From IMG/VR virus record IMGVR_UViG_2681813315_000020: a stretch of DNA of 14,422 nt; one strand, given 5' to 3'. The position numbers and the translations under genes are program-made. The notes beneath the pieces were generated by a model that saw nothing but the letters and a program-made list of their open reading frames with translations, had not been told where the DNA came from and did not search any database. Source of the stretch: a virus. Lineage: Duplodnaviria > Heunggongvirae > Uroviricota > Caudoviricetes. Of this stretch, positions 1-14,422 are shown piece by piece (the first letter of the stretch is position 1; each line of letters opens with the position of its first letter).

Positions 1-102
1 ATACTCATAACTAATTGAATTTAAACGACAAATAATATCTTAGATAACTTTAAAAATCGCAAAATGACTACACCAGTAACTACACCGTTCGGTGCACTGT
101 AT

Positions 103-130
103 GAAACAACGTGGAACAAATAGACACAAG
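103..130. repeat. Three 10-bp-phased GAACAAC-like repeats (GAAACAAC / GGAACAAA / GACACAAG), same motif family as arrays at 7092-7123 and 13111-13173
   Basis: Read directly: atGAAACAACgtGGAACAAAtaGACACAAG. The 12-mer ACAACGTGGAAC (107-118) is the exact reverse complement of GTTCCACGTTGT at 13154-13165. Confidence 0.6.
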
Positions 131-612
131 AAATATACAGGCGGGTCATCTTTCCAGGGGAAAGCACGCCAATTCATGAGGGGCGTTAATGTCGATATGG
201 GGATCCCCATAACGGGGCTACCTGGCTTTTTTTCCGGTTAAATGTCAATCAGGCTGGTGGGTTTTACATACCCTTGATCACCGTAATGATGATTCAGATC
301 TGCACCTTTCCACCAATGGTGGAAAAGCCCACAGCAGGCCGCCCAGCCTCCCCCAATGGGGGATTGTGGAAGAATCAACGGGTTAGGCCTTAATCATCTG
401 CGTAATCATAAGTAATCATAATGTTCATTCATCCAGCGCAATTTTGCGTTATCGGGAATATCAAACAGTTACCGCGCCGACTTCCTCAAATTGAGGTTTC
501 CGAAAATATCAGCGGGTTAGCGATTAAGCTGACCATTAATTAAACTGCGAAAATGTCGTAGTTGTGAGGGGTGTAGCCAACCCATTTTTGGACCGTCGGG
601 AATATCAACCAG

Positions 613-906
613 TTACCGCCGCAACCGCTCCGGCTTCTTCCAGTGGTAAGTAATTTTTTCTTTCTCCTGGTACATCTCCACGCGGCGACGATATGACAAC
701 AACTCCAGAACTCTGGTGCGTATATTGCGTATATCCACGCCGTTAAGCTCGATACCGTCACGGCGCATCACCTCAGCCACCACACGCGCGTAATTTTCGG
801 CTATCACGCTGTCCGGCTGCGTGGCCTCCTGTTTGCCTGCTTCCTGGCTGATTCCGGTAACGCGGCGGATTATTTTTAGTAGTTCGGTTTCGCTCATTCT
901 CGTCAT
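613..906 (-). CDS. Hypothetical 97-aa protein, translationally coupled to terL (ATGA stop/start overlap)
   Basis: ORF MTRMSETELLKIIRRV...; its ATG (906-904) overlaps the terL TGA (905-903). No family recognised by eye. Confidence 0.5.
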   Translation of the reverse strand: MTRMSETELLKIIRRVTGISQEAGKQEATQPDSVIAENYARVVAEVMRRDGIELNGVDIRNIRTRVLELLSYRRRVEMYQEKEKITYHWKKPERLRR

Positions 907-2564
907 ACCCCATCAAACGCCGCAAGCCGCTCTTTGTGGCTGTCGCTCATATCGAATGCAAAATCCTCGTGCTCTGCCTGGAATGTGCCAAACGCCATCA
1001 GCGCCGCAACGCTCGGGTCTATCTTGTTGGATGATTTTTTCTTGTTCGGCTTGATATTGGCGTTCGCGTCACTCTGCATCACAACATTACTCATTGACCA
1101 GGCCAGCACCGGATCGCCACGATGCACAATCACCTTCCGGTTAACAAAAACTTCGAACGATTTCGCCGCCGGACTGAAACGAAGGTATGTTTGCGGGAAC
1201 GGCTCCACCTCAAATCCTGCCCCCTGTAGCTGCGTCCTCAGGTGCGTGGCGTTCCATGTATCGAAGCCCACCAGCCTGATATTGAAATTCTCTGCATCCG
1301 CCATGATGTCATCACGGATACGGTCATAATCAATGCAGTCACCCGGTGTTGTGCGTATCCAGCCCGCCTTTACCCACTGGCGATAGATGGCGCGGTTTTT
1401 ATTGGCGGGGTTCTGTAGCTGAAATTCCGGCAGATAGTGACGGGAAACCAGCATAATCTTTTTACCGACCGGAAAGGCATAGCACACGCTGGAAATATCG
1501 CTGGTTGATGATAAGTCCAGCCCCGCGTAGCACTCCTGACCGTATAAATCCGCCTCCGCGAACGTTCCGGCGCACTCCGCCCATGCACCGTTACCCATCC
1601 ACGGCGTAGCCCCCTGACACCAGATATTGAATCGCTTGGTGAGCATTTCCACCTACTGCGACGGAATACCCCGCGCTTTCTGGATGGTTGAGGCCAGTTT
1701 TTCACGATCGACGGAAACATCGATATTGGGATTCGCCTTTATCCACATCGCCGGATCGTCAACCTCGCTTTCATCATCCAGCTCGTAAATCAGCACGAAC
1801 ATGGATTCGTTCACCTCTTCACCATCCAGTATCTGGCAGCAATAGTCATAGTGTTGTTTACAGGCTGAAACAACGTTGCTCCCCGATGTGGTGATGGCAA
1901 ATAACAGCCCCTCCGGACGCGCCCCCATTCCCAGTTCAAGCGCGGAATAAACCCCGTTGTCAGGGTGCAGGTGATATTCATCCACAATGGCAAGACTCGG
2001 GTTTGTACCTTCAATGGTTGCCGCTTTTGCTGCCAGTGGCTTTAACAGGCTGTTGGTTTTCGGGTGTATCACCTTGTGTGCCTGAATATTTACCCGCTTT
2101 CGTAACGGTCGGGATAAAAGGCACATCTGACGCGCATCATCAAACACGATCCGCGCCTGATCACGACTCACGGCGGCGGTGTAAATATCCTGCTGCCCGT
2201 TTTCCATAACCAGAAACCAGTTAGCCAGGATAGCGGCGACCGTGGATTTGGCATTTTTTCGCGGCACTTCAATGAATGCGCTGGTGTATTTGCGCCGTCC
2301 GGTGGCCTTAACCTTAAAGCCCAGGATGCACGCAAAGGCGAACTGCTGCCACGGCTCCAGCTCAATGGGGCTACCGCGCATTGCGCCTTTTACGTGCGGA
2401 CACACCCTGGAAAAGGCAATAAACCGCTCCACGACCTCCGGATCGAACGTGTAAAGGGGGTTTTCAAGGTCAGAAAAATACCGTTTAACGGCCTGTTTCA
2501 GTCGTTTACAGGCCGTAATTTTGCCGTTTTTTACGCCTTCTGCGTACTCATGCCAGGCGGTCAA
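903..2564 (-). pseudogene. terL: Terminase large subunit (HK97-like TerL) interrupted by an in-frame TAG at 1653-1655; N-terminal ATPase fragment 1656-2564, C-terminal nuclease fragment 903-1652
   Basis: ORFs 1653..2564 and 903..1652 are contiguous and in the same frame (...KARGIPSQ-TAG-VEMLTKRFNIW...). The N-terminal part carries a P-loop-like motif (VPRKNAKST) and TerL-like N-terminus; the C-terminal part resembles the terminase nuclease domain. Combined about 553 aa, typical TerL size. Apparent TTG start at 2564 preceded by AGAGGA; overlaps the terS 3' end. Confidence 0.75.
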
Positions 2565-2904
2565 GCTCGTCCTCTTCCTCTGTTTCCGGTGGATTTCTGC
2601 GGCGACTTACCGGGTCAAAACCCAGCAAAGAAGCCATTTTGATCATTATTCTTTCAGCGTCAGCCTTTGCGCTCAGGGCGGGGTTTCTGCTCTCGCTGCC
2701 CTGACTGTTAACAATGCTGAACCCGCGCGTGGCAAGGTCTTCGACGGCTTTGCGGTATATGGAGTAGTTAACGCAATACAGCTCCAGATTGCTCCAGTCG
2801 GCGGGGGTAAGGTCTTCCCGTCCGGAAAGCTGGCGCGATTTTTCCTTCCACTGCCTGACCGCGATTTCATCCAGGTAAGCGGGGGCTTTTGGTGGTCTTG
2901 CCAT
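2548..2904 (-). CDS. terS: Terminase small subunit, P27-like family
   Basis: Translation from the internal ATG at 2904 (MARPPKAPAYLDEIAVRQWKEKSRQL...GFDPVSRRRNPPETEEEDELD) matches the typical P27-family TerS N-terminus and acidic C-terminus. Lies immediately upstream of terL. Confidence 0.8.
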   Translation of the reverse strand: MARPPKAPAYLDEIAVRQWKEKSRQLSGREDLTPADWSNLELYCVNYSIYRKAVEDLATRGFSIVNSQGSESRNPALSAKADAERIMIKMASLLGFDPVSRRRNPPETEEEDELDRLA

Positions 2905-3192
2905 GTTCTTTTTTCGCCCAATTATTTTCAAAAAAATTCCCGTGCACAAAAATTTGAGGAGGCGGTCGGTGTCCGGCAGGGACGGTTTCGTCCTGAAAAC
3001 CACCCCCACCCCCTCTGACGGCCTCACCAGCGATTGCGAAAACATTCCATGACCTCGCGGTCACGGTCGGTTAATTGCTTCGCTGTGGTGCGTTCTGTGC
3101 GCCCTGTCCTGTTGGCTTTGTGCCCTGTCTCCTGTGTCTTCCATAAGTCACGCTGCCTTATCAGTCCACGTATCAGCCTGGTTTGCTCCTGT
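2905..3192. other. Candidate cos/packaging-site region between HNH and terS
   Basis: 288-bp gap in an otherwise tightly packed operon. Contains direct repeats GTGCGCCCTGTCCTGT (3098-3114) and GTGCCCTGTCTCCTGT (3120-3136), inverted repeat TGACCtcgcGGTCA (3049-3062), hairpin GGACGgtttCGTCC and C-tracts. In HK97-type phages cos lies between the HNH gene and terS. Confidence 0.35.
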
Positions 3193-3633
3193 TCAGTCAT
3201 CATCGCCATACATCCAGTCGTTACGGTGTGCTGCCCGTTCTTCCTGCTCGCGATACATGCCCGCCTTACGGTTCGCTTTCGTGGCTGGATCTTCCCGTGT
3301 CGTCTTACGGTTGTGGCACGTCTGGCACAATGCCTGGTGGTTCCACTCAGGCCAGAAGAGAACATCACCGCCGCCATTGATGGGGATGATGTGATCCACC
3401 ACAAGAGCTGGCGTATAAATCCCCTTAGCCAGACAACGCACGCATAACGGGTTTTTGCTCAGGTACAGGGCGCGGTATTTGTCCCACTGTCGGGAATACC
3501 CGCGCGCGCGGCGGTGTCCCCGTCTGGCATCCTCTGCACGCCATACAGCCCGTCTGTGCTCTTCACACTTGCCGGACTTCACGCGCTTATTACAGCCCGG
3601 CTCAGTGCATCGCCTTAATGGTTGCCACGGCAT
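3193..3633 (-). CDS. HNH endonuclease (phage packaging-associated)
   Basis: 146 aa with Cys pairs and the HNH core ...VVDHIIPINGGGDVLFWPEWNHQALCQTCHNRKT. Start overlaps the connector stop (TGATG). Sits directly upstream of terS as in HK97-type HNH-dependent cos packaging. Confidence 0.85.
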   Translation of the reverse strand: MPWQPLRRCTEPGCNKRVKSGKCEEHRRAVWRAEDARRGHRRARGYSRQWDKYRALYLSKNPLCVRCLAKGIYTPALVVDHIIPINGGGDVLFWPEWNHQALCQTCHNRKTTREDPATKANRKAGMYREQEERAAHRNDWMYGDDD

Positions 3634-3935
3634 CAGTACACCCCCACATCACGATAAACCGACCAGAGCGCAGAAATAGCCATAGGCAGTTCAGACTGCT
3701 CCACTGGTGAAACTGCTTCCCTGTTCTCGTACAGGAAAGCGATGTACATCAGGCAACCAACACGCATTGCCGGGGTAAATTCCAGCCCGTCTTCAAAACG
3801 TTTCCCGATATGCTTCTGGCAGGCTTCCAGCGCCGCATCGGTATACATTTTCAGAAGTTCGCCTTCACCGGATAAATCATCATCAAGTCGAAGATGTGCC
3901 CTGACTTCATCAGGTGTAATTCTGGCTTCACTCAT
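3633..3935 (-). CDS. Head-tail connector protein (gp6-like)
   Basis: Start at internal ATG 3935 with SD AAGGGAGA: MSEARITPDEVRAHLRLDDDLSGEGELLKMYTDAALEACQKHIGKRF..., typical N-terminal signature of gp6-like connector proteins. About 100 aa. Confidence 0.65.
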   Translation of the reverse strand: MSEARITPDEVRAHLRLDDDLSGEGELLKMYTDAALEACQKHIGKRFEDGLEFTPAMRVGCLMYIAFLYENREAVSPVEQSELPMAISALWSVYRDVGVY

Positions 3936-5142
3936 CTTTTCTCCCTTTAATTTCCACAGTCTGTTTCCATGCCTGGCTGAACTCATCACCACCTTCACGC
4001 GGCGGCATACCCTCGCGTTCGCGAGCTTCGTTCGGATTCATGATCCCGCTCTTAATCCCTTTCTCATACGTGGCATAACGTTCGGTGGGTGTGGCGCGCA
4101 GTAAATCGGCTGAATCAAACTCAACCAGATAACGGGTACCAGGTACGGGAGAAGTCACCAGCAAAGCGGCCTTGATTTGCTGTTCGAAGTTCGCCAGCCA
4201 CGGGCGCATTGTCATGGTCAGAAATGCGCGGCTCGCCTCACTGAAATTGCTGTAGGTGCTGTTGCTGTATTCCTGAAGAAAAATCGGCGACACGTTGAAC
4301 ATCCTGGCGATGTCTTCAATGGAGAAGCGACGGGAGGCCAGCCATTCCGCATCCTGGTTACTCATCCCCAGCCGCCTGTAATCCATGCCCCCTTCAAGGA
4401 TTGGCGTTTTTCCGGCATTTTTCGCCCCCTTGTAGCGTTCCAGTGCGTCTAATGCCTGTTTACCTTTCACGCCGTCCAGCCATTCACCTGACGTGATAAT
4501 CCCTGCCGCCATCATGCCATCTTTCATAATGCTGGCTCCGTGGCGCTGTTGAGCAAGGCCAAGCCCCAGCGCCTCACGGCAAATCGTGACGGGGGAACGC
4601 CCCAGAAAGCCATCATCCGAGGCATAGCGGAGATGCAGAACTTCTTCCTGTAAATACGTGCGCACCGTTCCTGTACAGGGTTCGGTGATGGTATAGCGGT
4701 ATTTGTGTGTGCCTGTGCGTTCCGGTACAACACACCCCGGCGCATAAGGATGAAGTGATTTTGGCTGCCCGTCCCGCCCCCACTCAATAACCGCATAGGC
4801 GTTACCGTTCAGCAGGCAGTGACGCATCATTGTGCGTTTAAACTGGTAAGGTGTCAGGCACGAATTAGGCTGCTCATTCAGCAGAATATCTACCGGGTGA
4901 CTGTCCAGCCATTCCCGCGCCTCTCTGCCCTTATCATTGCGTACCAGATACAGGTAACACGGCATCGTGGCCACCGCCTCAGCGATGACAGAAACCGCGT
5001 TCATCACAGCAGGCAATGATTCAGCCGTCCCGGCAGAAACATATTCTCCGGATCCGGTATTTGGTACACCAGACAACGCCAGAAAATCATCAATGGACAG
5101 GTTACGCAGATCGCTTTTTTTACGACTAAAAGGCCACCACAT
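3928..5142 (-). CDS. Portal protein, HK97 family
   Basis: About 404 aa from ATG 5142, 1 nt after the protease TGA. Portal-like segments: HPVDILLNEQPNSCLTPYQFKRTMMRHCLLNGNAYAV..., ...FSIEDIARMFNVSPIFLQ..., ...TMTMRPWLANFEQ... Confidence 0.85.
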   Translation of the reverse strand: MWWPFSRKKSDLRNLSIDDFLALSGVPNTGSGEYVSAGTAESLPAVMNAVSVIAEAVATMPCYLYLVRNDKGREAREWLDSHPVDILLNEQPNSCLTPYQFKRTMMRHCLLNGNAYAVIEWGRDGQPKSLHPYAPGCVVPERTGTHKYRYTITEPCTGTVRTYLQEEVLHLRYASDDGFLGRSPVTICREALGLGLAQQRHGASIMKDGMMAAGIITSGEWLDGVKGKQALDALERYKGAKNAGKTPILEGGMDYRRLGMSNQDAEWLASRRFSIEDIARMFNVSPIFLQEYSNSTYSNFSEASRAFLTMTMRPWLANFEQQIKAALLVTSPVPGTRYLVEFDSADLLRATPTERYATYEKGIKSGIMNPNEAREREGMPPREGGDEFSQAWKQTVEIKGRKDE

Positions 5143-5143
5143 A

Positions 5144-5704
5144 TCACAACCCCGCCAGTTCAGCCCAGCGATGACGATTATTTCCTGCCGGGCGTAATTC
5201 AGGGTACTGTGCAAACAACGAACGGTGGGCAATCTCCACGCCGGATTCGGGATAAGCAGGCATCGATGTTATCGTGATTTCACGGAGTTCTGCTGCGGTT
5301 ACAGTACGCAGATACGGTTTTTGCGCGATATTCCACTCCTCGCATAATGCGCGAAAGCCAAAGCTCATTCCTGTAATATCGCCACGTTCCACCAGCGTAA
5401 GCACATCTTTTCCAAGCTGGGTATTTGGCGGTGTCAGTTCAAAACGTAGCCCGGTGTTATCCTCAGTCAGTACCAGTGAGCCGGATTTGGTACGCCCCAG
5501 CAGTTGGGTATAGTCATGCTCATACAGACAGCGCACATCATTACCTGCCGCCAGATAGTCAGCAAAAGCCCCCGGCGTGAACTGTTCGCGAAACTCGTCC
5601 CAGATAATTTCTGAAAGGCTGTTCCAGCGAACGGCATAACCCACCAGTTTTTTATCGCTGGCGGTCAGTTCAGATGTACGGATTTCAAAATCGGTGTTTT
5701 TCAT
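5144..5704 (-). CDS. Prohead maturation protease, HK97 family (S78-like)
   Basis: Start at internal ATG 5704 (SD GGAG 7 nt upstream): MKNTDFEIRTSE...LVGYAVRWNSLSEII...GMSFGFRA...LREITITSMPAYPESG, matching the conserved blocks of HK97 prohead proteases. Confidence 0.8.
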   Translation of the reverse strand: MKNTDFEIRTSELTASDKKLVGYAVRWNSLSEIIWDEFREQFTPGAFADYLAAGNDVRCLYEHDYTQLLGRTKSGSLVLTEDNTGLRFELTPPNTQLGKDVLTLVERGDITGMSFGFRALCEEWNIAQKPYLRTVTAAELREITITSMPAYPESGVEIAHRSLFAQYPELRPAGNNRHRWAELAGL

Positions 5705-5753
5705 CGGTGTACTCCATAAAGCTGAAAAAGGAGGCCGAAGCCCCCTTTGCTCA

Positions 5754-6899
5754 TTACTTGCCAGCCTGAATTTCCAGAATCTTGATGGCGTTCGAATCCA
5801 CCACACCACCGCCCAGATATTTCTGGGTATAGATGTTAATGAATCCAGGCTCGCTGAAATCCGGACGGGTACGCGTACCGGTTTTATGGTCAACGATGAA
5901 ATAACCGCGCTTAAAGTCACCGACTGCAATCACACCGTCTGGCATAAATTCCAGATATTCAACCGGAAGCCCCAGCAGAGAATCAGGATCACCAGCCTGT
6001 AAACGATCGCGCCAGATGTAATCACCAGTGGCATTTTTCAGTTTTTGTGCGGAGGCGGCTGTATTTGAGTTCATCACCCATACAGCTTTTTTGCGGTACT
6101 TATTGCGCAGCGTAAATTTCAGGTCAATCAGCATATCGGCGCTGAGACTGCCAGTCACTTTTTTCGTCTGGAGCGTACCGAAAGGACGGGTTTTGTCATT
6201 ATCCGTAGCGCGCGGGAAAGTCAGGAAACCTTTGGCTTTTTTCTCGCCATCACCGGAAACCAGATCCGTTTCTTCGGTATCAACGAAAGTGTCGCCAATT
6301 TCAGAAGATAACCAGCCCATAATATCGACTTCGGAAAAATCGATAATTTCCTGAGTGGTTTTCGGGTAAGCGTAGATCGGATACAGGCGGATACTGACTT
6401 CATTCAGTTTTGGGGTTGCCGTCTGGTTACGTGCCGCACCTTCTTCGCCGTGTCCCACGACCGCACCCCCGGCAGAAACCAGTTGCTTAAATTCATTACT
6501 GTGAATGGTTTTAACAGTACAGATTTTACGCATCACCGACTCATCAGAAAGCTGACGCATAATTTCTCTGTTCAGTTCCGGGATAACCGTATAACCACCA
6601 TCAGCCGGAACACTGCCGGACAGGTTGCGGGTTTCCCCGGTCAGAATGTAAGAGCGTAGCTCATTTTTGGTGATTTTATCTTCGACGGGAACACCAGGCT
6701 GGTTACGTTCTTCATCAGCCACAGACTCGAGGCGGGAAATTTCTGTGTCGAGGGAATCGGCTTTTGCACGCAGTTCATCAAACTGTTTGCCTTCGTCATC
6801 GGTTAGACTGCGGTTTTCACTGTCGGCTTTTTCCAGCAGGGATCGCATCTGGTTTTTCAGGGCGGTTTTTTGCTGGCGGAGTTCGATTAATTTCTTCAT
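5754..6899 (-). CDS. Major capsid protein, HK97 fold, with N-terminal coiled-coil (delta/scaffold-like) domain
   Basis: 381 aa. N-terminal about 100 aa predicted coiled coil (MKKLIELRQQKTALKNQMRSLLEKA...). Body has HK97-family capsid blocks (GHGEEGAARNQTATPKLNEVSIRL..., ...DLVSGDGEKKAKGFLTF...). Confidence 0.85.
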   Translation of the reverse strand: MKKLIELRQQKTALKNQMRSLLEKADSENRSLTDDEGKQFDELRAKADSLDTEISRLESVADEERNQPGVPVEDKITKNELRSYILTGETRNLSGSVPADGGYTVIPELNREIMRQLSDESVMRKICTVKTIHSNEFKQLVSAGGAVVGHGEEGAARNQTATPKLNEVSIRLYPIYAYPKTTQEIIDFSEVDIMGWLSSEIGDTFVDTEETDLVSGDGEKKAKGFLTFPRATDNDKTRPFGTLQTKKVTGSLSADMLIDLKFTLRNKYRKKAVWVMNSNTAASAQKLKNATGDYIWRDRLQAGDPDSLLGLPVEYLEFMPDGVIAVGDFKRGYFIVDHKTGTRTRPDFSEPGFINIYTQKYLGGGVVDSNAIKILEIQAGK

Positions 6900-7054
6900 G
6901 AAGGTTTTCTCGCATTGGTTAAGATTCAGGACGTGAAACCAACACGGGGGGAGCGCCGCCCGACACTCTCGGCATCTCGCAGATCAACCCGGCATCGCGC
7001 AGGGGGTCAGGCGGCATTGTGGCGGCTCACGTCTGAGTGCCACACGCCAACATA

Positions 7055-7082
7055 TACATAAAAATCAGTATGTAAACATCAA
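7055..7082 (-). promoter_or_regulatory. Candidate sigma70-type promoter for the head/packaging operon
   Basis: On the minus strand: TTGATG (7082-7077) - 16 bp - TATGTA (7060-7055), immediately downstream of the GTTGTTC repeat array and upstream of the capsid gene with an about 150-nt GC-rich leader. Hexamers are imperfect; prediction by eye only. Confidence 0.3.
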
Positions 7083-7091
7083 CCAGAATCA

Positions 7092-7123
7092 CCGAACAAC
7101 CTGGAACAACCACGAACAAATAA
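7092..7123. repeat. Three 10-bp-phased GAACAAC repeats (minus strand GTTGTTC) between the terminator and the packaging-operon promoter
   Basis: Read directly: ccGAACAACCtgGAACAACCacGAACAAAt; same motif family as 103-130 and 13111-13173. Confidence 0.6.
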
Positions 7124-7142
7124 TTTACAAAACCTGAAAAAA

Positions 7143-7163
7143 GGCCCGGAAAAAATCCGGGCC
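7143..7163. terminator. Bidirectional rho-independent terminator
   Basis: GGCCCGG-aaaaaat-CCGGGCC, flanked by an A-tract upstream and T-tract downstream on the plus strand; on the minus strand it follows the stop of the 7173..7421 gene and precedes TTTTTCAGGTTTTG. Confidence 0.8.
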
Positions 7164-7172
7164 TTTATCGCT

Positions 7173-7421
7173 TTATTGTTTCACTGGCTCCCGCATTCTG
7201 CGTCTTATTTTCCACAAATATTCGATCATCGCTTCCACCTGCTCACGGTTGGTTGCGAAAATTTCCCCGGTCAGTGAGCTACGCAGAAAATCATGATGAT
7301 CCACAAAAAATAACGCATCGGAAGAAAGCAACCGACGATATTTTTTTGCTGTCGTGGTTTCCAGATCATCAAAACCATGAAGCTTTTTATGTTGCTGAAC
7401 TTCTTCAAATGTCACTGGCAT
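7173..7421 (-). CDS. Hypothetical 82-aa protein
   Basis: ORF with strong SD (AAGGGGGA) before ATG 7421; start overlaps the 3' end of the FinO/ProQ-like gene; followed by the terminator. No family recognised. Confidence 0.5.
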   Translation of the reverse strand: MPVTFEEVQQHKKLHGFDDLETTTAKKYRRLLSSDALFFVDHHDFLRSSLTGEIFATNREQVEAMIEYLWKIRRRMREPVKQ

Positions 7422-7942
7422 GTATCCCCCTTTGCTGCCCGGCGCTGGCGCTTGTGCTTCTCATTCAGCACCATCAGCCGTGTTTCTGCCTCCTGCTGTT
7501 CCTGTGGTGTCACTTCCCCACATGGCTGGCCTTTCAGATCGTAACGTGCGCCACCAGCTATCAGGGCGCGGTAATAGCGCGGAGACTGCGCATAGGATGC
7601 CAGCGTCGCACGTAATACCCCCGGCCCGAATGCCAGCCCCCTGACGGCGATATCCTGCATCAGGTCGTCGAATATCCCCACCTTAAGCGGCTTCGGTGCT
7701 TTATGGCTGAATAAGTCAGGCCACATCTCAGTGAGGCGGTTAACGCGTCGGCGGTTTTTGCGCTGCCTTTTGGTCATATGCTGCCACGGTGTCGCCCCTG
7801 TGGGCTTCTGCTGTGCGTTCTGATTGCCGGGTATCACTTTATGCGCCGATGTGGTTTTATCCTGCTCTTGCGCCGCCTGCGTCGTTTTCTGCGGCGTGCC
7901 GTAAATGCCTTTCGGCTTCCGGTTAATGGTCAGCGTTGTCAT
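7412..7942 (-). CDS. FinO/ProQ-family RNA-binding (RNA chaperone-like) protein
   Basis: 176 aa; region WPDLFSHKAPKPLKVGIFDDLMQDIAVRGLAFGPGVLRATLASYAQSPRYYRALIAGGARYDLKGQPCGEVTPQEQQEAE matches the conserved ProQ/FinO N-terminal domain pattern (PLKIGIFQDL...LR.AL..YT.S.RY...G..R.DL.G.P.GE). SD GGGGAAGG before ATG 7942. Confidence 0.65.
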   Translation of the reverse strand: MTTLTINRKPKGIYGTPQKTTQAAQEQDKTTSAHKVIPGNQNAQQKPTGATPWQHMTKRQRKNRRRVNRLTEMWPDLFSHKAPKPLKVGIFDDLMQDIAVRGLAFGPGVLRATLASYAQSPRYYRALIAGGARYDLKGQPCGEVTPQEQQEAETRLMVLNEKHKRQRRAAKGDTCQ

Positions 7943-7978
7943 GCCTTCCCCTGTAATTACTCTGTTCGCTGTTGTGAA

Positions 7979-8404
7979 TTAAAACGGTATGTTATCCCCG
8001 TACGGGTCATCGTGCTGGCTTGTCTGTTGTTTTGCCCTGTTCAGTGCGTCAGTGGCCTGGCCCTGTTGACCTTTTTTGCCGCCCGGTCGCGCCGTTCGCG
8101 CACTGATTACGCTGTCTGCAATAACCTGCCAGCCCCGCTGCGTTTCCCCGTTCTGGCCTGTCCACTGGCTCACCTGCATGTTACCCGCCACGCTCACCAG
8201 TTCGCCTTTGTGGTGTTTTGCCAGTGCGTCGGCCTGTCTGCCAAACGCCAGGACAGATAACCACATCGTCGCCGTTCCGTCATCTGCCTGGCTGCATGGC
8301 AGGGGAACCGCCATACTCGCCATCGCCATTTGTGTCCCCTTGCTGGTGGTCTTTAACTGCGGGTCAGCCACCAGCCGCCCGTAAGCCGCTATCTGTGCTG
8401 TCAT
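7979..8404 (-). CDS. ssb: Single-stranded DNA-binding protein
   Basis: 141 aa; OB-fold-like N-terminal region (AAYGRLVADPQLKTTSKG...WLSVLAFGRQADALAKHHKGELVSVAGNMQVSQWTGQNGE), Gly/Gln-rich linker and acidic C-terminal tail ending DDPYGDNIPF, cf. the canonical SSB DDDIPF tail. Confidence 0.8.
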   Translation of the reverse strand: MTAQIAAYGRLVADPQLKTTSKGTQMAMASMAVPLPCSQADDGTATMWLSVLAFGRQADALAKHHKGELVSVAGNMQVSQWTGQNGETQRGWQVIADSVISARTARPGGKKGQQGQATDALNRAKQQTSQHDDPYGDNIPF

Positions 8405-8646
8405 GCTGTCTGCTCTCCGGTTTTAACGTTGATGGTTGTCACCTGTTCCGCTTCGGCAATCTCCCGTTCTGTCAGTGTGGCAAAGTTTGCCGCTGCCGTG
8501 GTCATGAATGCGCTTACCAGTTCGGGATGTGCTTTTGCGTACCCTTCTCCCGCGTTGCGGTCGATGATTTTTATCGCCACCCTCAGCCAGTGTTCTGTCA
8601 AATCAAGGGCGTGAGATTGTGTTTTTTTTGCGTGCTGCGTTGTCAC
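8401..8646 (-). CDS. Hypothetical 81-aa protein between the origin and ssb
   Basis: ORF overlapping the ssb start (ATGA-type coupling). No family recognised. Confidence 0.45.
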   Translation of the reverse strand: MTTQHAKKTQSHALDLTEHWLRVAIKIIDRNAGEGYAKAHPELVSAFMTTAAANFATLTEREIAEAEQVTTINVKTGEQTA

Positions 8647-8691
8647 AGGCTTTACCTCACAGCAATAAAATAAAATTTTTGCATTTTAACC

Positions 8692-8920
8692 CTTCACCTG
8701 TTCACCTTTTGAGATTTTCCCTTTTTATTCATAATGTTAAGGGGTGAACAGTTTCACAAAAACTATTCACCAACTGTTCACCACTGTTCACCCTTAAAGC
8801 TCAATAAATAATCAAAAAGGTGAACAGTGAATAGTTTGGTGAACAGTTCACAAATAACTGTTCACCCTATAATGTACTGATATAAAAGATATTTATAACA
8901 GGGTGAACAGTGGTGAACAG
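8692..8920. repeat. Iteron array (about 12 copies of GGTGAACAG / CTGTTCACC in both orientations) with adjacent AT-rich tract 8663-8690; candidate replication origin
   Basis: Read directly: cttcaccTGTTCACC, GGGTGAACAG, tattcaccaaCTGTTCACCaCTGTTCACCc, aGGTGAACAGtgaatag...GGTGAACAGttcac...CTGTTCACCc, GGGTGAACAGtGGTGAACAG. Lies immediately 3' of the primase/helicase gene, the usual place for satellite and plasmid origins. Confidence 0.75.
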
Positions 8921-8933
8921 TTATTCCATAAGT

Positions 8934-10748
8934 TTAATTTTTGCTGTCGTCATTTGTGACCGATGCACATGATGGCATCCAGTCTTCTGAATCCTCTGTC
9001 AGTGTCACATTTGAACGCAAACCGTGCTTCGTTTTCCGTTTTATATACTCCCTGCCATATTCCGCCATTGCCCCCGGCATATCTTTACCGAAGCGCGTCA
9101 GTGTTACAGGTTTACCGAATCCGTGTGCCCTCATATATGCCAGATAGGCGTGATAAAGATACCTGCGCGGACTGAACGGAATAATTTCGGCATTACCCAC
9201 TAACAGACCATCACACATTACCGACGACATGAGATAGCCACAGAAGTCCACCAGCGAATCGCCCTCGCGTTTTATCACCAGAGCTTCTTCTGATTTCTGC
9301 TGCTCATACAGCAGGCGTTTAGCTTCGTCCTGGTCAGAAAAACGAGTAAGCAGATGGCGAATCACAACCGCCAGCTCTCCTTCTATTTTTTCTGCCAGCA
9401 TGGGGTCGCGCTCGTTCTCCGGTACAACCTCCGAAAAATTGAATATCACCCGACGACGTGAGATCCCCCCGCTGCGGTCACTGAATGACATGGCGTTATT
9501 GTTCACCGCCAGCACGACCGCCTGAATGCGTGTTGAGTAGGGGGCTTTATGCTTCGGGTCGATTGCCACCTTGTCACCGCCTGTAATAGCCTTAATTCCT
9601 GCGCCATCACCAGCGTAGCGGGTCATATCCGGCATGATAATCAGCGAAAAGCCAACCACTAACGCGCGTTCCCTTGCATCTTCCAGCGCCTTCATGCTTG
9701 CCGATACTGTGTTGGCCTTACCCGCCAGCATGGTGCAAATCTCCGCCATCACGCTTTTACCACTTCCCCCTGGACCTGTTACCTCAATGAATAACTGCCA
9801 GTCGTACCGGTTCGCCAGCACCATGAATAATGCAGCCAGCACGCGATCCGTCTTGCGGTCATTCTCTGCCACCGAGCAGCGTAACCACTTCCAGAAATTC
9901 GGCGCATGTGTTGCCAGCGTTTCCCCCTCTGCTGGTGGGCTGAAAGGTAATTCACTGGCAATTAACAACCAGTCGTTTTTGTTATGCTCCCGAAAATTAC
10001 CTGTTCTGGTATCAAATACCCCGTTACTGAATCCAATCAGGTTACGGGCTGTATTCCCCATTACAGGCAAACTTAACTTCATGGTATCGACCGCCGATTT
10101 AATGGCGTTCTGCGAATAGCTGATCTCCGCATCAATGAAAATCTGCGCCATAGCACGCTGTAACTCTTTATCCTGAATCGGCTCCCATACAACGCCGTTG
10201 TAATGGTGAACAGTGTCAGAGTCGGCATGAATCGCCAGTTCACCGCCATAATGTGCCAGGAGAACTTCGCCGCGCTGGCTTGCTCCCATCTGGTTAAGCG
10301 CCAGTGGTGCGGCGCTGTCTTCTGTTTTTTTCTTAACAGGAAGCTGAATCACCAGACCATCAGAAAGATTCTGGCGCTCACGGGCCAGATATTCGCGCCA
10401 GTTCTGCACCTCCTGGCCGTGCATACCCTCAGGATAAAAATTTGCATCCTGTACGCCTGCCGCCGCCAGCTTCTGACCAATCGCCTTTATCATTACTGGC
10501 GCAAGATATCCGGCCCTGAATATGCGCACGGATTTTCTGCCTTCCGGCACAATTTGCAGCTTATCCAGTTCGGATAACTGCTGCTCCCCAAGCCACACAG
10601 GAGGCTCATTATCTCCGGCCATACGCGCGTCATGTTCCTGCCATTGTTTTGCGTGTGACCAGGCATCACTACCCGCAAAAATAATGACTTCTGTTTCTTT
10701 GTGTTTTATGCCGCGTGACTGCTGTTTTACGTTCGGTGCCAGTTTCAT
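8934..10748 (-). CDS. Replication initiator: primase/helicase-type protein with D5_N-like region and P-loop NTPase domain
   Basis: 604 aa; Walker A FIEVTGPGGSGKSVMAE; upstream region resembles the D5 N-terminal-like domain found with phage/plasmid primase C-terminal NTPases. Stop codon abuts the iteron array. Confidence 0.8.
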   Translation of the reverse strand: MKLAPNVKQQSRGIKHKETEVIIFAGSDAWSHAKQWQEHDARMAGDNEPPVWLGEQQLSELDKLQIVPEGRKSVRIFRAGYLAPVMIKAIGQKLAAAGVQDANFYPEGMHGQEVQNWREYLARERQNLSDGLVIQLPVKKKTEDSAAPLALNQMGASQRGEVLLAHYGGELAIHADSDTVHHYNGVVWEPIQDKELQRAMAQIFIDAEISYSQNAIKSAVDTMKLSLPVMGNTARNLIGFSNGVFDTRTGNFREHNKNDWLLIASELPFSPPAEGETLATHAPNFWKWLRCSVAENDRKTDRVLAALFMVLANRYDWQLFIEVTGPGGSGKSVMAEICTMLAGKANTVSASMKALEDARERALVVGFSLIIMPDMTRYAGDGAGIKAITGGDKVAIDPKHKAPYSTRIQAVVLAVNNNAMSFSDRSGGISRRRVIFNFSEVVPENERDPMLAEKIEGELAVVIRHLLTRFSDQDEAKRLLYEQQKSEEALVIKREGDSLVDFCGYLMSSVMCDGLLVGNAEIIPFSPRRYLYHAYLAYMRAHGFGKPVTLTRFGKDMPGAMAEYGREYIKRKTKHGLRSNVTLTEDSEDWMPSCASVTNDDSKN

Positions 10749-11032
10749 TTTTTACCCCCTGCGACCAGCATTTCACGAATTTTGCGGATATGACTTGCTG
10801 CACGTTTCTGATTTACGGCTTTACGATGGCCCACCAGCGTGAAATCACGCCGGAACTGATAAACAGGCATCACGCAGTCATATTCGTAGCCATCACGGCG
10901 GTAAGTGATGCGCCGTTCTGCCACGCCTTTTATCGTTACCGTGCCGCCATAGTTATCCCGGAAAATATCGCCGGGGCGGATTTCAGGCCGAGCGGGGCCG
11001 CTGGCAGTAAAGCCAGAAATTTTCTGTTTCAT
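10745..11032 (-). CDS. Hypothetical 95-aa protein, translationally coupled to the primase gene
   Basis: ORF whose stop overlaps the primase ATG (ATGA); 5 nt after the stop of the upstream gene. Confidence 0.5.
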   Translation of the reverse strand: MKQKISGFTASGPARPEIRPGDIFRDNYGGTVTIKGVAERRITYRRDGYEYDCVMPVYQFRRDFTLVGHRKAVNQKRAASHIRKIREMLVAGGKK

Positions 11033-11037
11033 GGTTT

Positions 11038-11265
11038 TTATTCCGCGTTTATTTTTTTATCGTGAATTTCGATCGCTTTATTTAATTCGACGATTACCGT
11101 ATCGAGTAATGAAATAAACGCACCAGCAAGATTAGACTCACGCTCATCTTCCGGCGCATCACTTAAACCATCAAGCCAGATAAGAAATATTTGCCTCAAA
11201 CATTCACTGTTAGTCAGTGCGTTTTCTGCATGGCTCATTGATTTAAGATAACGGTCATCATGCAT
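11038..11265 (-). CDS. Hypothetical about 75-aa protein
   Basis: ATG at 11265 preceded by GGGGG (MHDDRYLKSMSHAENALT...); overlaps the stop of the upstream gene (ATGATGA context). The track ORF extends to 11310 but that start lacks an SD. Confidence 0.4.
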   Translation of the reverse strand: MHDDRYLKSMSHAENALTNSECLRQIFLIWLDGLSDAPEDERESNLAGAFISLLDTVIVELNKAIEIHDKKINAE

Positions 11266-11494
11266 GGTGCACCCCCTGAATATCTGCGGTAAGAATTTTG
11301 CCTGCCTCATTCAGCGCCATATCAGCACTAAATTGCATAAGAGCCAGTGAGTGAGGAACGAAAGCCCCGGCATATTCTGTTTCGCTGGTGGCGTGCTTAT
11401 GCGCCTTGTCTGCGATAACAGAAATATCAATCAGCGCGTGCATCAGCGTTTTGATGGCTTCGGCGGCTGCGTCCGGTGTGGTTTTATTGTGCAT
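11258..11494 (-). CDS. Hypothetical 78-aa protein
   Basis: ATG at 11494 preceded by strong SD AGGGGGAAA; overlaps the 3' end of the upstream gene. Confidence 0.5.
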   Translation of the reverse strand: MHNKTTPDAAAEAIKTLMHALIDISVIADKAHKHATSETEYAGAFVPHSLALMQFSADMALNEAGKILTADIQGVHHA

Positions 11495-11774
11495 AGGTTT
11501 CCCCCTGGCGAATACGGGCAGCGAATACCATCACGCAGCCATCAGGAGATTGCTGACGCGCTTCCTGTTCGCTGGTGGCCTCAATGGTAATCACGCGCGG
11601 TTGTGCCGTGCTCAGGGCAATAAAACGCCAGATGTATTTATTCAGGTTGTACGAGTCCCGCCCTTGCGGGTGTCTGGTATAATTTCTCATAGCTGCCTCG
11701 ATACGCTTTCTATCGTTGGTGGTTAGACGCCCTGCATGTGTGCCACCACTGCGGGGCGTTGTTGTTTGGTGCAT
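11484..11774 (-). CDS. Hypothetical about 96-aa protein, first gene of the replication operon; weak, unverified resemblance to Icd-like small proteins
   Basis: First ATG is at 11774 (MHQTTTPRSGG...YIWRFIALSTAQPRVITIEATSEQEARQQ...VMVFAARI); the longer track ORF would need a TTG start at 11861 inside the divergent promoter. Family guess is from memory only. Confidence 0.35.
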   Translation of the reverse strand: MHQTTTPRSGGTHAGRLTTNDRKRIEAAMRNYTRHPQGRDSYNLNKYIWRFIALSTAQPRVITIEATSEQEARQQSPDGCVMVFAARIRQGETYAQ

Positions 11775-11859
11775 CGCACCATTCGGTTTTAACCTATCAA
11801 TAAGTGAATCGCACCTCAAGCCTTTCTCTGAAATTTTTTTGTGTATACTGAATCGCACC
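11771..11859. promoter_or_regulatory. Divergent promoter/operator region with three ATCGCACC direct repeats
   Basis: gcATCGCACC (11771-11780), gaATCGCACC (11806-11815), gaATCGCACC (11850-11859). A good -10-like TATACT at 11844-11849 lies just before the third copy, upstream of the plus-strand RHH gene (SD AGAGAGGA, ATG 11880). Confidence 0.4.
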
Positions 11860-11879
11860 AACTTAGAGAGGATTCAGTA

Positions 11880-12059
11880 ATGGCAACAGGTTCAACAAAT
11901 AATAAGTCGCAACAGTTAAATGCCAGATTCCCGCATGATGTTGTTGCAGACTTAGAAAAAAATTTAGATGAAGGTGAAAGCAAGGCGCAATTTATAGTTA
12001 CTGCCGTTAAAGGTGAGATCAAACGCCGCCAGCGCCGCAAGGCCAAAGAGCAGGAGTAA
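11880..12059 (+). CDS. Small ribbon-helix-helix (Arc/MetJ-like) DNA-binding protein, candidate regulator
   Basis: 59 aa from ATG 11880: MATGSTNNKSQQLNARFPHDVVADLEKNLDEGESKAQFIVTAVKGEIKRRQRRKAKEQE; pattern of a short beta-strand (LNARFP) followed by two helices and a basic tail resembles the Arc repressor (FNLRWPREVLDLVRKVAEENGRSVNSEIYQRV). Confidence 0.5.
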   Translation: MATGSTNNKSQQLNARFPHDVVADLEKNLDEGESKAQFIVTAVKGEIKRRQRRKAKEQE

Positions 12060-12101
12060 CCATCACCAGCGCCGTGGTGTAAGGTATTACGGCGCATTGC
12101 T

Positions 12102-12290
12102 ATGCAGGACAACACAATGACCGATAAAGAATTGACCAAAACATTATCACCGACACGGAAAAGACGACGCAGAAAGATAGAGCATGAATCAGAAAGATTC
12201 GCGCCATGTGCTTTTGCCCTTGAGCAATTCCTTAAAGAGTACAGGGAAAAGCGCTCATTGCAGGTATGGCAACGAACTGAACCAGACTGA
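12102..12290 (+). CDS. Hypothetical small basic protein (start may be ATG 12117)
   Basis: ORF MQDNTMTDKELTKTLSPTRKRRRRKIEHESERF...; AGGA lies 9 nt before the second ATG; followed by an intrinsic terminator at 12357-12388. Confidence 0.35.
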   Translation: MQDNTMTDKELTKTLSPTRKRRRRKIEHESERFAPCAFALEQFLKEYREKRSLQVWQRTEPD

Positions 12291-12356
12291 TTGCATTGCC
12301 CACCAGCCGCAAATGTGGCATTGTTGGTGATGCTTTTGTTTTCCCTTGTTCTCACT

Positions 12357-12388
12357 GGCGACCCTTTTGCGGTCGCCTTTGTTTTGCC
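12357..12388 (+). terminator. Rho-independent terminator
   Basis: GGCGACC-cttttgc-GGTCGCC followed by TTTGTTTTG. Confidence 0.7.
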
Positions 12389-12481
12389 TGTTATCCGGCA
12401 ATTGTGGCGCTTCGCCACACGGTTGATATAATTCCCCTGCACTGATCCATTTTTTTCGCAGCAGGTTAATTGTTCAGAAAG

Positions 12482-12510
12482 GCGGTTCCTTATCGGGGCC
12501 GCTTTTTTTA
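12482..12510 (+). terminator. Second candidate rho-independent terminator
   Basis: GCGGTTCC-ttatc-GGGGCCGC (two G-U wobbles) followed by TTTTTTTA. Confidence 0.45.
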
Positions 12511-12622
12511 TGCCTGAAAATACCCGATAACATGGCTTTTTAGTTTCACCAGGACGAACGAAGCCCCGCCCCTGTTCGGGCGTATATCCAGTATTCATGG
12601 TTAGATCTCTGTGTTAGTGGAT

Positions 12623-12647
12623 GGCTGGCGGCGGTGCGCCGCCAGCC
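12623..12647. other. Perfect GC-rich hairpin 3 nt past the alpA stop (no U-tract)
   Basis: GGCTGGCGGCG-gtg-CGCCGCCAGCC, 11-bp stem. Confidence 0.5.
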
Positions 12648-12650
12648 TGA

Positions 12651-12854
12651 TTAGTGAACTGCCTCGCGGCTGTCCTTCCATGCCAGAACTTCGGATAAAG
12701 ACCAGCCAACGGAACGACCGCCGAGTTTACGCCGTGATGGGAATTGTCCAGTCTTCTCCAGGCGATACCGACATGAGCGGCTCAGGCCTGTAAGTTGCTG
12801 ACATTCTTTTTCACGTATAAAGCGATCAGCGCTTAACACTATTGCCTCCGTCAT
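12651..12854 (-). CDS. alpA: AlpA-family transcriptional regulator / excisionase-like winged-helix protein
   Basis: 67 aa (or 62 aa from GTG 12839, preceded by GGAGG): ...DRFIREKECQQLTGLSRSCRYRLEKTGQFPSRRKLGGRSVGWSLSEVLAWKDSR, matching the AlpA signature (R.....TGLSRSTIYRL...G.FP...KLG.R.V.W...EV..W). Downstream of and co-oriented with int as in CP4-57 (intA...alpA). Confidence 0.8.
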   Translation of the reverse strand: MTEAIVLSADRFIREKECQQLTGLSRSCRYRLEKTGQFPSRRKLGGRSVGWSLSEVLAWKDSREAVH

Positions 12855-13110
12855 TTCTCAAAGAGTCATTTGGTGTCTTATTGTGTCGTATTGTTCCCGC
12901 TAGAGTGATGAATGGCAAATATTGGTGACGGTCGTTTTACAGATATGGGGTAATTAGAATAAAAATACTTTTAATTCATTGTGATGTAGTAGCGTAAAAT
13001 TTTGCTTTTACGCCTTTTTTACATATTTTTAAGAGTGATTCGCCAGTGTATAAAAAAACAGTGTACATATAAAAATCAAATGGTTATGAATGAGTTTGAT
13101 TTTTAATCCG

Positions 13111-13173
13111 CTTGTCCCATTTTGTTCCTTGTTGTTCGTCGTTGTGTCTCGTTGTTCCACGTTGTGTCCGTTC
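13111..13173. repeat. Six tandem 10-bp-phased GTTGT(T/G)(T/C)C repeats between the int stop and alpA
   Basis: Read directly: CTTGTCCCat TTTGTTCCtt GTTGTTCGtc GTTGTGTCtc GTTGTTCCac GTTGTGTCcg. Opposite orientation to arrays at 103-130 and 7092-7123; shares an exact 12-mer with 103-130. Confidence 0.65.
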
Positions 13174-13192
13174 TGAAAAATCACGAAAAAAA

Positions 13193-14422
13193 TTATATTT
13201 CTCTGGCTATTGGCAGTGTGGTTACGTTTTCGTGAGTACCCGCCAGTATCTCTAACCGCTCTGTCCACATGTCCAGCGCATTACGTTTCGCATCGAGATA
13301 ACGGGAGTGGTTATAGACTCGCTGCATCCCTGGCATCTGGTGAGCGGTGAGTTGTTCGACAATATGCGGATCCACGCCTAAATCGTTCAGCATCGTGGTA
13401 AACGTGCGCCGTATATCGTGTAGTGACCAGTGCGGATGGTTTAATTTTTTGTGCGTGAATCTGCCGTATTGCGACACGCTGGCTTCCTGTTTCAGTTCCC
13501 CGAGTAATAGTCCTGTGTGTCGGTTCTGCTCCACCAGCCGTGTGACGAACGGTAAAATGCTTTCCGGTATTGGCCTGAATATGGCGACCTTCGTTTTGCT
13601 GTGCTCCTTCGGTACTGTCCAGAGCATTTCCTTAAAATCCCACTCCCTGATCTCCGACAGCCTCAGTTCTCCGGTTCGGCAACCAAACACAATCAGGAGG
13701 CGGATTAGTGCGCTGTAGTAGGGCGGGAATATTTTTTTATCCAGCGCCTGTAATAATTCGCCCAGTTCTTTGTTACTAAGCACGCGTTCGCTTATGCCCG
13801 GCTTTTTGCCAACGTCCACCACGTTGAGATCATCCAGAACGTTACTGACTGCGTAGCGACGTTTACGGCAGAACTTAAGCGCCTGTTTACACGCCTGCAT
13901 CATGTGACCAGACGTTACGGGGGATTTTTTGCGTATCCGGTCAAAACAGGCCAGCCAGTGACGTAATTCGCATTTATCCAGTGGCATGTTACCGATGTGC
14001 TGTATGACGTGATTATTCAGGCGACTTTTCAGGCATACATAATCGACACGGTTTTCCTTTACGTGCGTTTCCAGCCAGTAACTGATCGCATCGCCAACCG
14101 TTACGGGTTTTAACGCTTCCTGCACAGTGTAGTTCAGTTCATGACGTGGGTTTTTCCCTTCTGCCAGCCATGCACGACACTTTGCGGCTTTTTCCCTGGC
14201 TGCTTTAAGGCTCAGATCGGGATAGTTTCCCAGCTTCAGGCGTTCCGGTGTGGTATCCCTTCCCGTTCCAGCCCTGTAGGTGAAGTACCAGGTCAATTTA
14301 CCTGATGTTAAATATTTCACGCTCAGATTACCGCCATCGCTATAGAACGTATTTTTCTCCGCTGGCTTACCATAAAGTTTTCTTAACAATGTATCGCTCA
14401 GTTTGTTAAGCGCTCTGCTCAC
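13193..14422 (-). CDS. int: Tyrosine integrase, P4/CP4-57 type, with N-terminal arm-binding (DUF4102-like) domain; 5' end at or just beyond the window edge
   Basis: 409 aa reaching the window edge, where the first codon is GTG. N-terminus LSDTLLRKLYGKPAEKNTFYSDGGNLSVKYLTSGKLTWYFTYR resembles the P4-type integrase N-terminal domain; C-terminal catalytic region has HDIRRT and VYNHSRY (tyrosine recombinase His-x-x-Arg and Tyr motifs). Confidence 0.9.
   Translation of the reverse strand: MSRALNKLSDTLLRKLYGKPAEKNTFYSDGGNLSVKYLTSGKLTWYFTYRAGTGRDTTPERLKLGNYPDLSLKAAREKAAKCRAWLAEGKNPRHELNYTVQEALKPVTVGDAISYWLETHVKENRVDYVCLKSRLNNHVIQHIGNMPLDKCELRHWLACFDRIRKKSPVTSGHMMQACKQALKFCRKRRYAVSNVLDDLNVVDVGKKPGISERVLSNKELGELLQALDKKIFPPYYSALIRLLIVFGCRTGELRLSEIREWDFKEMLWTVPKEHSKTKVAIFRPIPESILPFVTRLVEQNRHTGLLLGELKQEASVSQYGRFTHKKLNHPHWSLHDIRRTFTTMLNDLGVDPHIVEQLTAHQMPGMQRVYNHSRYLDAKRNALDMWTERLEILAGTHENVTTLPIAREI

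Follow-up and report, generated by a model that had tools for sequence, protein, structure and literature searches.

An amber codon at a conserved tryptophan in the large terminase gene of an Escherichia coli satellite island

In the DNA analysed here (14,422 nt, referred to below as the window) the large terminase gene (terL) of a capsid-forming satellite appears as two open reading frames (ORFs) parted by a single stop codon. Such a locus might be a gene that has lost its function, a gene with a stop codon that is read through, a terminase made in two pieces by translational restart, or a sequencing error. These readings were compared by using the frame itself, intact homologues of the gene, the gene content of the island and the distribution of the stop codon in public assemblies.

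One reading frame and one stop codon

The minus-strand frame from 2564 to 903 was translated and set beside the ORF list. It consists of 303 sense codons, TAG at 1655-1653, a further 249 sense codons and the terminal stop (903-905), and is listed as two minus-strand ORFs, one of 303 aa with a TTG start (1653..2564) and one of 249 aa with a GTG start (903..1652). The codons around the amber read CCG TCG CAG TAG GTG GAA ATG CTC; the stop is followed directly by GTG (1652-1650), then by GAA and ATG (1646-1644). The earlier note had described one frame cut by a single TAG at 1653-1655, with a GTG and then an ATG right after it, and both the translation and the ORF list agree with that description. 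The elements of the gene are as follows:

2570..2575, minus strand: AGAGGA, Shine-Dalgarno-like, 5 nt upstream of the TTG and inside the 3′ end of terS
1656..2564, minus strand: terL 5′ part, codons 1-303, TTG start at 2564-2562 (Pfam; alignment to HK97 TerL, 6Z6D)
1653..1655, minus strand: amber codon TAG, terL codon 304; G-to-A at window position 1654 (C-to-T on the plus strand), from TGG
1650..1654, minus strand: AGGTG, Shine-Dalgarno-like pentamer overlapping the amber codon, 3 nt before the ATG of M307
903..1652, minus strand: terL 3′ part, codons 305-553 and stop (Pfam TerL_nuclease; alignment to HK97 TerL)

In Pfam searches the upstream piece matched TerL_ATPase (E 1.4e-26) as well as positions 5-52 of the TerL_nuclease profile, and the downstream piece took up the same profile at positions 59-284 (E 2.1e-37). 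Because the nuclease profile runs on across both ORFs, these are consecutive parts of a single terminase gene. Both Walker motifs, A with K103 and K106 and B with D195 and E196, are encoded in the 5′ part, whose end falls in the ATPase lid region; the 3′ part has the three catalytic aspartates of the nuclease (D350, D435, D516) and two possible restart codons, the GTG of V305 (1652-1650) and the ATG of M307 (1646-1644). The ATPase motifs and the RNase H-like nuclease with its three aspartates are those of a HK97/P27-type TerL (PF03354 and PF20441), and the uninterrupted polypeptide that should join the two domains is missing from the window, owing to the TAG at codon 304. A terL with both domains present and a TAG between its ends is a disrupted member (pseudogene) of the TerL family.

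The TTG start, which had also been remarked on, proved to be ordinary. TTG at 2564-2562 is the only in-frame ATG, GTG or TTG before codon 45, and homology to HK97 TerL begins at codon 46. The AGAGGA in front of it has an anti-Shine-Dalgarno duplex energy of −7.3 kcal mol−1, and the motif GAGGA(A/G)GACGA(G/A)C-TTG recurs in other genera. The NCBI annotation of the intact allele starts at the same TTG. Of 76 species-level loci, 30 have their aligned start here, and 45 begin at an ATG overlapping the stop codon of terS. The TTG was therefore confirmed as the start and rejected as an anomaly, and judged by these comparisons it is a feature of the lineage.

The codon that was lost and the place of the break

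The closest intact allele is that of E. coli E200086, which gave the best match when 5,426 complete E. coli genomes were searched and has a single annotated TerL of 553 aa. The two terL sequences differ at five of 1662 bases, one of these differences being TAG in the window versus TGG in E200086 at codon 304. TGG is found at this codon in E. coli E203449 as well, and in all 76 of the species-level loci. In an alignment of 128 full-length homologues from Enterobacterales and Pasteurellaceae, with identities of 69-93 %, every sequence has Trp304, which stands in the invariant block A-R-G-I-P-S-[Q/E]-W-[V/T]-E-M-[L/M]-T-K-R-F-N; position 305 is V or T, and M307, D350, D435 and D516 are also invariant. 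The exact TerL protein with the Trp restored is present on 73 public contigs. On these alignments the amber is the product of a G-to-A transition in the Trp codon TGG. An alignment to intact homologues had been proposed in the earlier note, with TGG among the predicted one-step neighbours of TAG, and TGG is the codon that it returned.

In this family 75 of the 76 species-level loci are uninterrupted. The exception, L069 from Xenorhabdus stockiae, carries an unrelated CAG-to-TAG change at codon 382, which indicates that nonsense decay occurs now and then in these terminases.

The place of the break was examined on the distant HK97 TerL (6Z6D; E 4.5e-43, residues 46-539), the one relative with a solved structure that sequence searching brought up. 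HK97 numbering was set with a 10-residue tag offset and checked against D302 and D388. Window residues K103 and K106 align to HK97 K57 and K60, and E196 to E154; the nuclease aspartates D350, D435 and D516 align to D302, D388 and D471. W304 aligns to HK97 residue ∼259, between R254 and R270, and HK97 has Glu where the window family has this Trp, which is invariant only in the satellite-type subfamily. R254 and R270 are ATPase-domain residues that have been assigned to oligomerisation and core-lid movement, and their mutation reduces packaging (PMC9410871). Since W304 falls between them, the break lies inside the ATPase lid region and at no clean domain border; the first aspartate of the nuclease follows ∼45 residues later. 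Of the earlier description of the TAG as parting an ATPase half from a nuclease half, the contiguity of the two pieces in one frame stands; the position of the cut does not, as it is within the lid. An AlphaFold2 model of an intact homologue (P0032), built on a shallow alignment of 26 sequences, had a mean pLDDT of 63.9 and values below 50 over most of residues 177-322, too poor for placing W304, which therefore rests on the HK97 crystal structure. When the ATPase and nuclease domains of the phage T4 terminase gp17 are separated, each remains active by itself, and DNA translocation is lost completely (PMC9958956).

A capsid-forming island and the expected loss of packaging

The window lies between two halves of comM as a complete island of 14.4 kb. 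On the minus strand the order of genes is integrase, HTH regulator, small genes, a 604-aa primase (D5_N/primase), SSB and a ProQ/FinO protein, followed by the capsid module: capsid, prohead protease, portal, head-tail connector, HNH endonuclease, terS, terL and a small ORF (94 aa according to the NCBI annotation, 97 aa as the longest ORF). The island and its module upstream of terL were assigned as follows:

1..14422, minus strand: capsid-forming PICI-type island, inserted in comM (yifB) (annotation of near-identical islands)
6899-5757, minus strand: capsid (Pfam), intact
5704-5147, minus strand: prohead protease (Pfam), intact
5142-3931, minus strand: portal (Pfam), intact
3935-3636, minus strand: head-tail connector (faint profile match), intact
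3633-3196, minus strand: HNH endonuclease (HNH profile match), intact
2548..2904, minus strand: terS, P27-family small terminase, 118 aa according to NCBI (Pfam Terminase_4, E 4.2e-23)

The packaging and capsid genes at 3196..6899 are full-length, free of stop codons and 99.5-100 % identical to annotated homologues. terS, the longest ORF of which extends to 3045, shares 17 nt with the start of terL and is 100 % identical to terS of the near-identical island L001. From the primase through the gene after terL, alignment was full-length with 95.6-100 % identity. Of the 20 other genes annotated in an intact relative, 19 align to the window without a stop; one small hypothetical gene had no match in the window. 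The earlier statement that every other gene in the module looks intact thus holds; the one small hypothetical gene is the only one left unaligned.

The backbone is that of a capsid-forming phage-inducible chromosomal island (cf-PICI), with an integrase at one end, a regulator and a primase, and the island has its own capsid, protease, portal and connector genes followed in order by hnh-terS-terL. No tail or lysis gene was present among the annotated genes of the near-identical islands L001 and L012, and with 14.4 kb the window is within the ∼10-15 kb of a cf-PICI. Proteobacterial cf-PICIs are described as having morphogenetic genes, then hnh-terS-terL, in this order and without tail genes (10.1101/2022.09.08.507074). 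By its gene content the window can be likened to the cf-PICI EcCIEDL933, with the same gene order, a size of ∼14 kb and neither tail nor lysis genes; it differs in the amber codon of terL, and its insertion site is comM.

When the packaging-module genes of EcCIEDL933 were mutated singly, transfer was abolished, or severely reduced for one hypothetical gene, and replication was unaffected; mutation of the homologous packaging genes of the helper phage abolished phage transfer and left PICI transfer in place (10.1101/2022.09.08.507074). As the helper mutants spare the transfer of the PICI, phage and PICI packaging are independent of each other, and since mutants of the island lose transfer, a terL-null island should not spread. 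In the window, one G-to-A transition has turned the TGG of the invariant Trp304 into TAG, a real change that is inherited within an E. coli clone. Translation should stop at codon 303 and yield an ATPase fragment of ∼34 kDa, from which the end of the lid, the linker and all of the nuclease domain would be missing. A cf-PICI packages its DNA by its own HNH-TerS-TerL alone, and the helper phage is no substitute. Excision, replication and the building of capsids would most likely remain possible for the island; its DNA would most likely be neither cut nor packaged, and the island would be an immobilised satellite that has only begun to decay.

We therefore favour, with a probability of about 0.8, the reading in which the terL amber is a recent loss-of-function mutation with loss of packaging, and hence of transfer, as its most likely consequence. 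The loss of packaging is deduced from the mutant data of the related island and from structure-function work on the HK97 and T4 terminases; helper-dependent transfer, which for a cf-PICI takes place in small capsids of its own making fitted with phage tails, is predicted to fail for the amber-terL island. The earlier note had offered, among its options, a satellite made packaging-defective by a recent nonsense mutation and otherwise intact, and it is this option that gains support from the ancestral TGG, the invariance of the Trp, the 73 contigs that encode the Trp-restored protein and the intactness of the other genes.

The event is an ordinary pseudogenisation of a mobile element, of a known kind and without a new mechanism. 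As in other decaying prophages and satellites, a point mutation has struck a mobility gene in one clone and a second strike has followed in sister isolates: in two TAG-bearing contigs (L003 and L009) the end of an IS100 is inserted at window position ∼1205, inside the terL 3′ fragment, as expected for a dead gene. Related copies of the island have lost other genes, as also happens in pseudogenising prophages and satellites; in the island of E203449 the capsid gene is split by an IS21-like element and terL is intact. Nothing notable in the window sets it apart from the usual course of such decay.

Distribution of the amber allele and alternative readings

The window is identical to contig CYCR01000016.1 of GCA_001284745.1 (100 % identity over 12,564 bases compared). 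TAG was read directly in the DNA of nine contigs (L002-L009 and L094), which derive from GCA_001284745.1, GCA_001277715.1, ERR137824, ERR137795, ERR137791, ERR178162 (the latter four being isolate runs), ERR7737955 and two ENA metagenome assemblies. Some of these runs and assemblies may share isolates, and the number of independent isolates is therefore smaller than that of contigs; the contigs still represent different isolates and projects. The exact 303-aa and 247-aa products are held in the public protein collection under several NCBI accessions each, from at least four assemblies each; exact-protein look-ups gave 21 and 15 contigs. A 71-nt probe centred on the TAG found 442 copies of the region in the 5,426 complete E. 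coli genomes, none of them at 100 %, and exact 33-nt scans across the TAG found nothing in GTDB species-representative genomes or in IMG/VR; it was the exact-protein look-ups alone that brought the allele to light. The host flank present in three TAG contigs is identical at 2897 of 2897 bases, and E203449, which has the island with an intact terL, is 97.6 % identical to it over 1500 bases. Because the TAG contigs with host flank match fully, the allele is placed in one clone.

On two contigs (L006 and L007) the TAG stands on a second background with seven shared single-nucleotide polymorphisms (SNPs) relative to the window, at least one of which is present in an intact allele as well. Three of the seven were checked and are synonymous, at 1539 (terL), 2806 (terS) and 865 (the 97-aa gene); three are too few to judge selection after the mutation. 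With two SNP backgrounds, the allele could have persisted or moved for some time. Both contigs apparently come from mixed samples, and the variant shared with an intact allele suggests that the sequences recombined or were assembled as chimeras; it is no evidence of mobility.

Read-through of the amber, by a suppressor tRNA of the host or by near-cognate decoding, might supply enough full-length TerL for some packaging. In E. coli, UAG is naturally suppressed more readily than the other stop codons, low-level natural read-through could give traces of the full-length protein, few TerL molecules are needed per capsid, and the rest of the island is intact. Amber suppressors are rare in natural isolates, however, and a search for tRNA genes in the island found none. 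The residue to be replaced is an invariant Trp, in place of which the protein might not accept Gln, Tyr or Lys, the residues that are usually inserted, and the TAG is confined to one clone and absent from the 442 other copies, so that the stop codon itself shows no conservation. Read-through sufficient for packaging seems unlikely.

In the case of restart, ribosomes would begin anew at the ATG of M307, and fragments 1-303 and 307-553 would associate non-covalently and still package. This ATG lies 5 nt past the stop, and the AGGTG over the stop codon has an anti-Shine-Dalgarno duplex energy of −8.1 kcal mol−1, comparable with those of real gene starts of the island (−3.0 to −12.3 kcal mol−1). 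The 247-aa ORF from this ATG is called by gene callers in public assemblies. Given the ATG and the AGGTG, a C-terminal piece that holds the complete nuclease fold could be made. Each fragment retains its catalytic motifs, Walker A and B in the first and the three aspartates in the second, and the TAG allele is present in many samples. The ATG, the GTG and the Shine-Dalgarno-like sequence are, however, shared with the intact genes, in which the ATG and the GTG are conserved sense codons, and the version with TGG has the same duplex energy; they are ancestral coding sequence and no adaptation for restart, and the GTG and ATG were rejected as an evolved restart signal. The two pieces would lack the invariant W304 as well as V305 and E306, with a cut inside the lid instead of in a linker, and unlinked domains fail to translocate DNA in T4 (PMC9958956). 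None of the 128 homologous proteins and none of the 76 loci is organised as two genes, and in the sister isolates the 3′ fragment is broken further by IS100. Restart at some level may occur; that it would yield a packaging enzyme is very unlikely. Equally doubtful is the broader proposition that the amber allele is functional, whether as a two-piece packaging terminase or as a truncated ATPase kept for a benefit to the host clone, for example interference with helper-phage packaging or the fixing of a useful island in place; the spread of the allele over several isolates, metagenomes and two SNP backgrounds would agree with persistence of this kind. If the split protein were active, the ATPase lid and the nuclease of TerL would need no covalent link, contrary to the T4 result.

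An error of sequencing or assembly, with TGG as the real codon, would fit the one-base difference from the intact alleles and the two contigs (L010 and L011) that end exactly at the T of codon 304, a fork in some assembly graphs. These two were left out of the count of TAG carriers, and their ends are better explained by a fork at which both alleles were present in mixed samples. With the TAG in nine contigs across isolate runs, NCBI assemblies and metagenomes, and the products of both fragments deposited from at least four assemblies each, the error proposed in the earlier note has next to no probability and is effectively refuted.

The notion that ATPase and nuclease are normally separate genes in this family, which the earlier note had named as fatal to its reading, is refuted by the homologues, which are single proteins of 553-558 aa (545-560 aa across the 128 aligned), and by the 75 uninterrupted loci among 76. 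A few database entries bear the name 'TerL endonuclease subunit', and all of them are marked partial.

With loss of function by the W304 amber as the preferred reading, the finding has little significance beyond annotation. In annotation the two ORFs should be merged into a single terL pseudogene (W304 amber), and surveys of satellite mobility should list the island as one that probably cannot be transferred. Close copies of this cf-PICI decay by different strikes, namely the terL amber, terL::IS100 and capsid::IS21, and the clone, as a natural terL-null island, may serve as a control for transfer experiments.

Start of terL and interruptions of its reading frame

The terminase large subunit gene (terL) begins with a TTG codon and overlaps terS by 17 nt (window 2548-2564). 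In the homologues from Proteus, Xenorhabdus and Pasteurellaceae, the terL start codon is instead ATG and overlaps with the stop codon of terS (ATGA). Across the species-level set of 76 homologous loci, TTG was found as the start codon in 30, ATG in 45 and GTG in one. A separate nonsense mutation, independent of the amber codon 304, was observed in the terL homologue of Xenorhabdus stockiae (L069:2501-4162), in which CAG is changed to TAG at codon 382; this was the only interrupted copy in the set (1/76).

Two contigs from other samples, L010 (end 6783) and L011 (end 5931; an island variant with 96 % identity), both break off precisely on the T that opens the TAG/TGG codon, equivalent to window 1655. 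These ends probably represent a fork in the assembly graph, with both alleles present within one sample.

The left end of IS100 (IS21 family) was located inside the 3′ fragment of terL in two sister assemblies bearing the TAG allele, GCA_001277715.1 and ERR137791, and is a second hit on this gene besides the amber codon:

L003:11358-11481 and the end of L009 (∼window 1205): left end of IS100 in the terL 3′ fragment

Gene content and mosaic regulatory end

A single-stranded DNA-binding protein (SSB) and a ProQ/FinO-family RNA-binding protein are encoded between the primase gene and the capsid module (window 7412-8404). By comparison with the island of E. coli E200086, which carries the closest intact terL allele, the regulatory end is mosaic (window 10760-11880 and 13193-14422): identity was 82 % for the integrase and 39-85 % for the Icd-like, DUF4222 and small ORFs; the stretch from primase to terL was 95.6-100 % identical. 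The TAG-bearing contig L004 contains a cluster of seven SNPs at 10856-10941.

Insertion in comM and inactivation of other genes

The island boundaries coincide exactly with window 1 and 14422, and the host gene comM (yifB) is interrupted by the insertion, since its halves lie on either side. The same island occupies this site in E. coli E203449:

L012:133-1497 and 19149-19322: comM (yifB) halves beside the island

The major capsid gene of the E203449 island is broken by an IS21-like ISSso4 element (L012:7402-11193), and its terL is intact; different genes have therefore been inactivated among closely related copies of the island.
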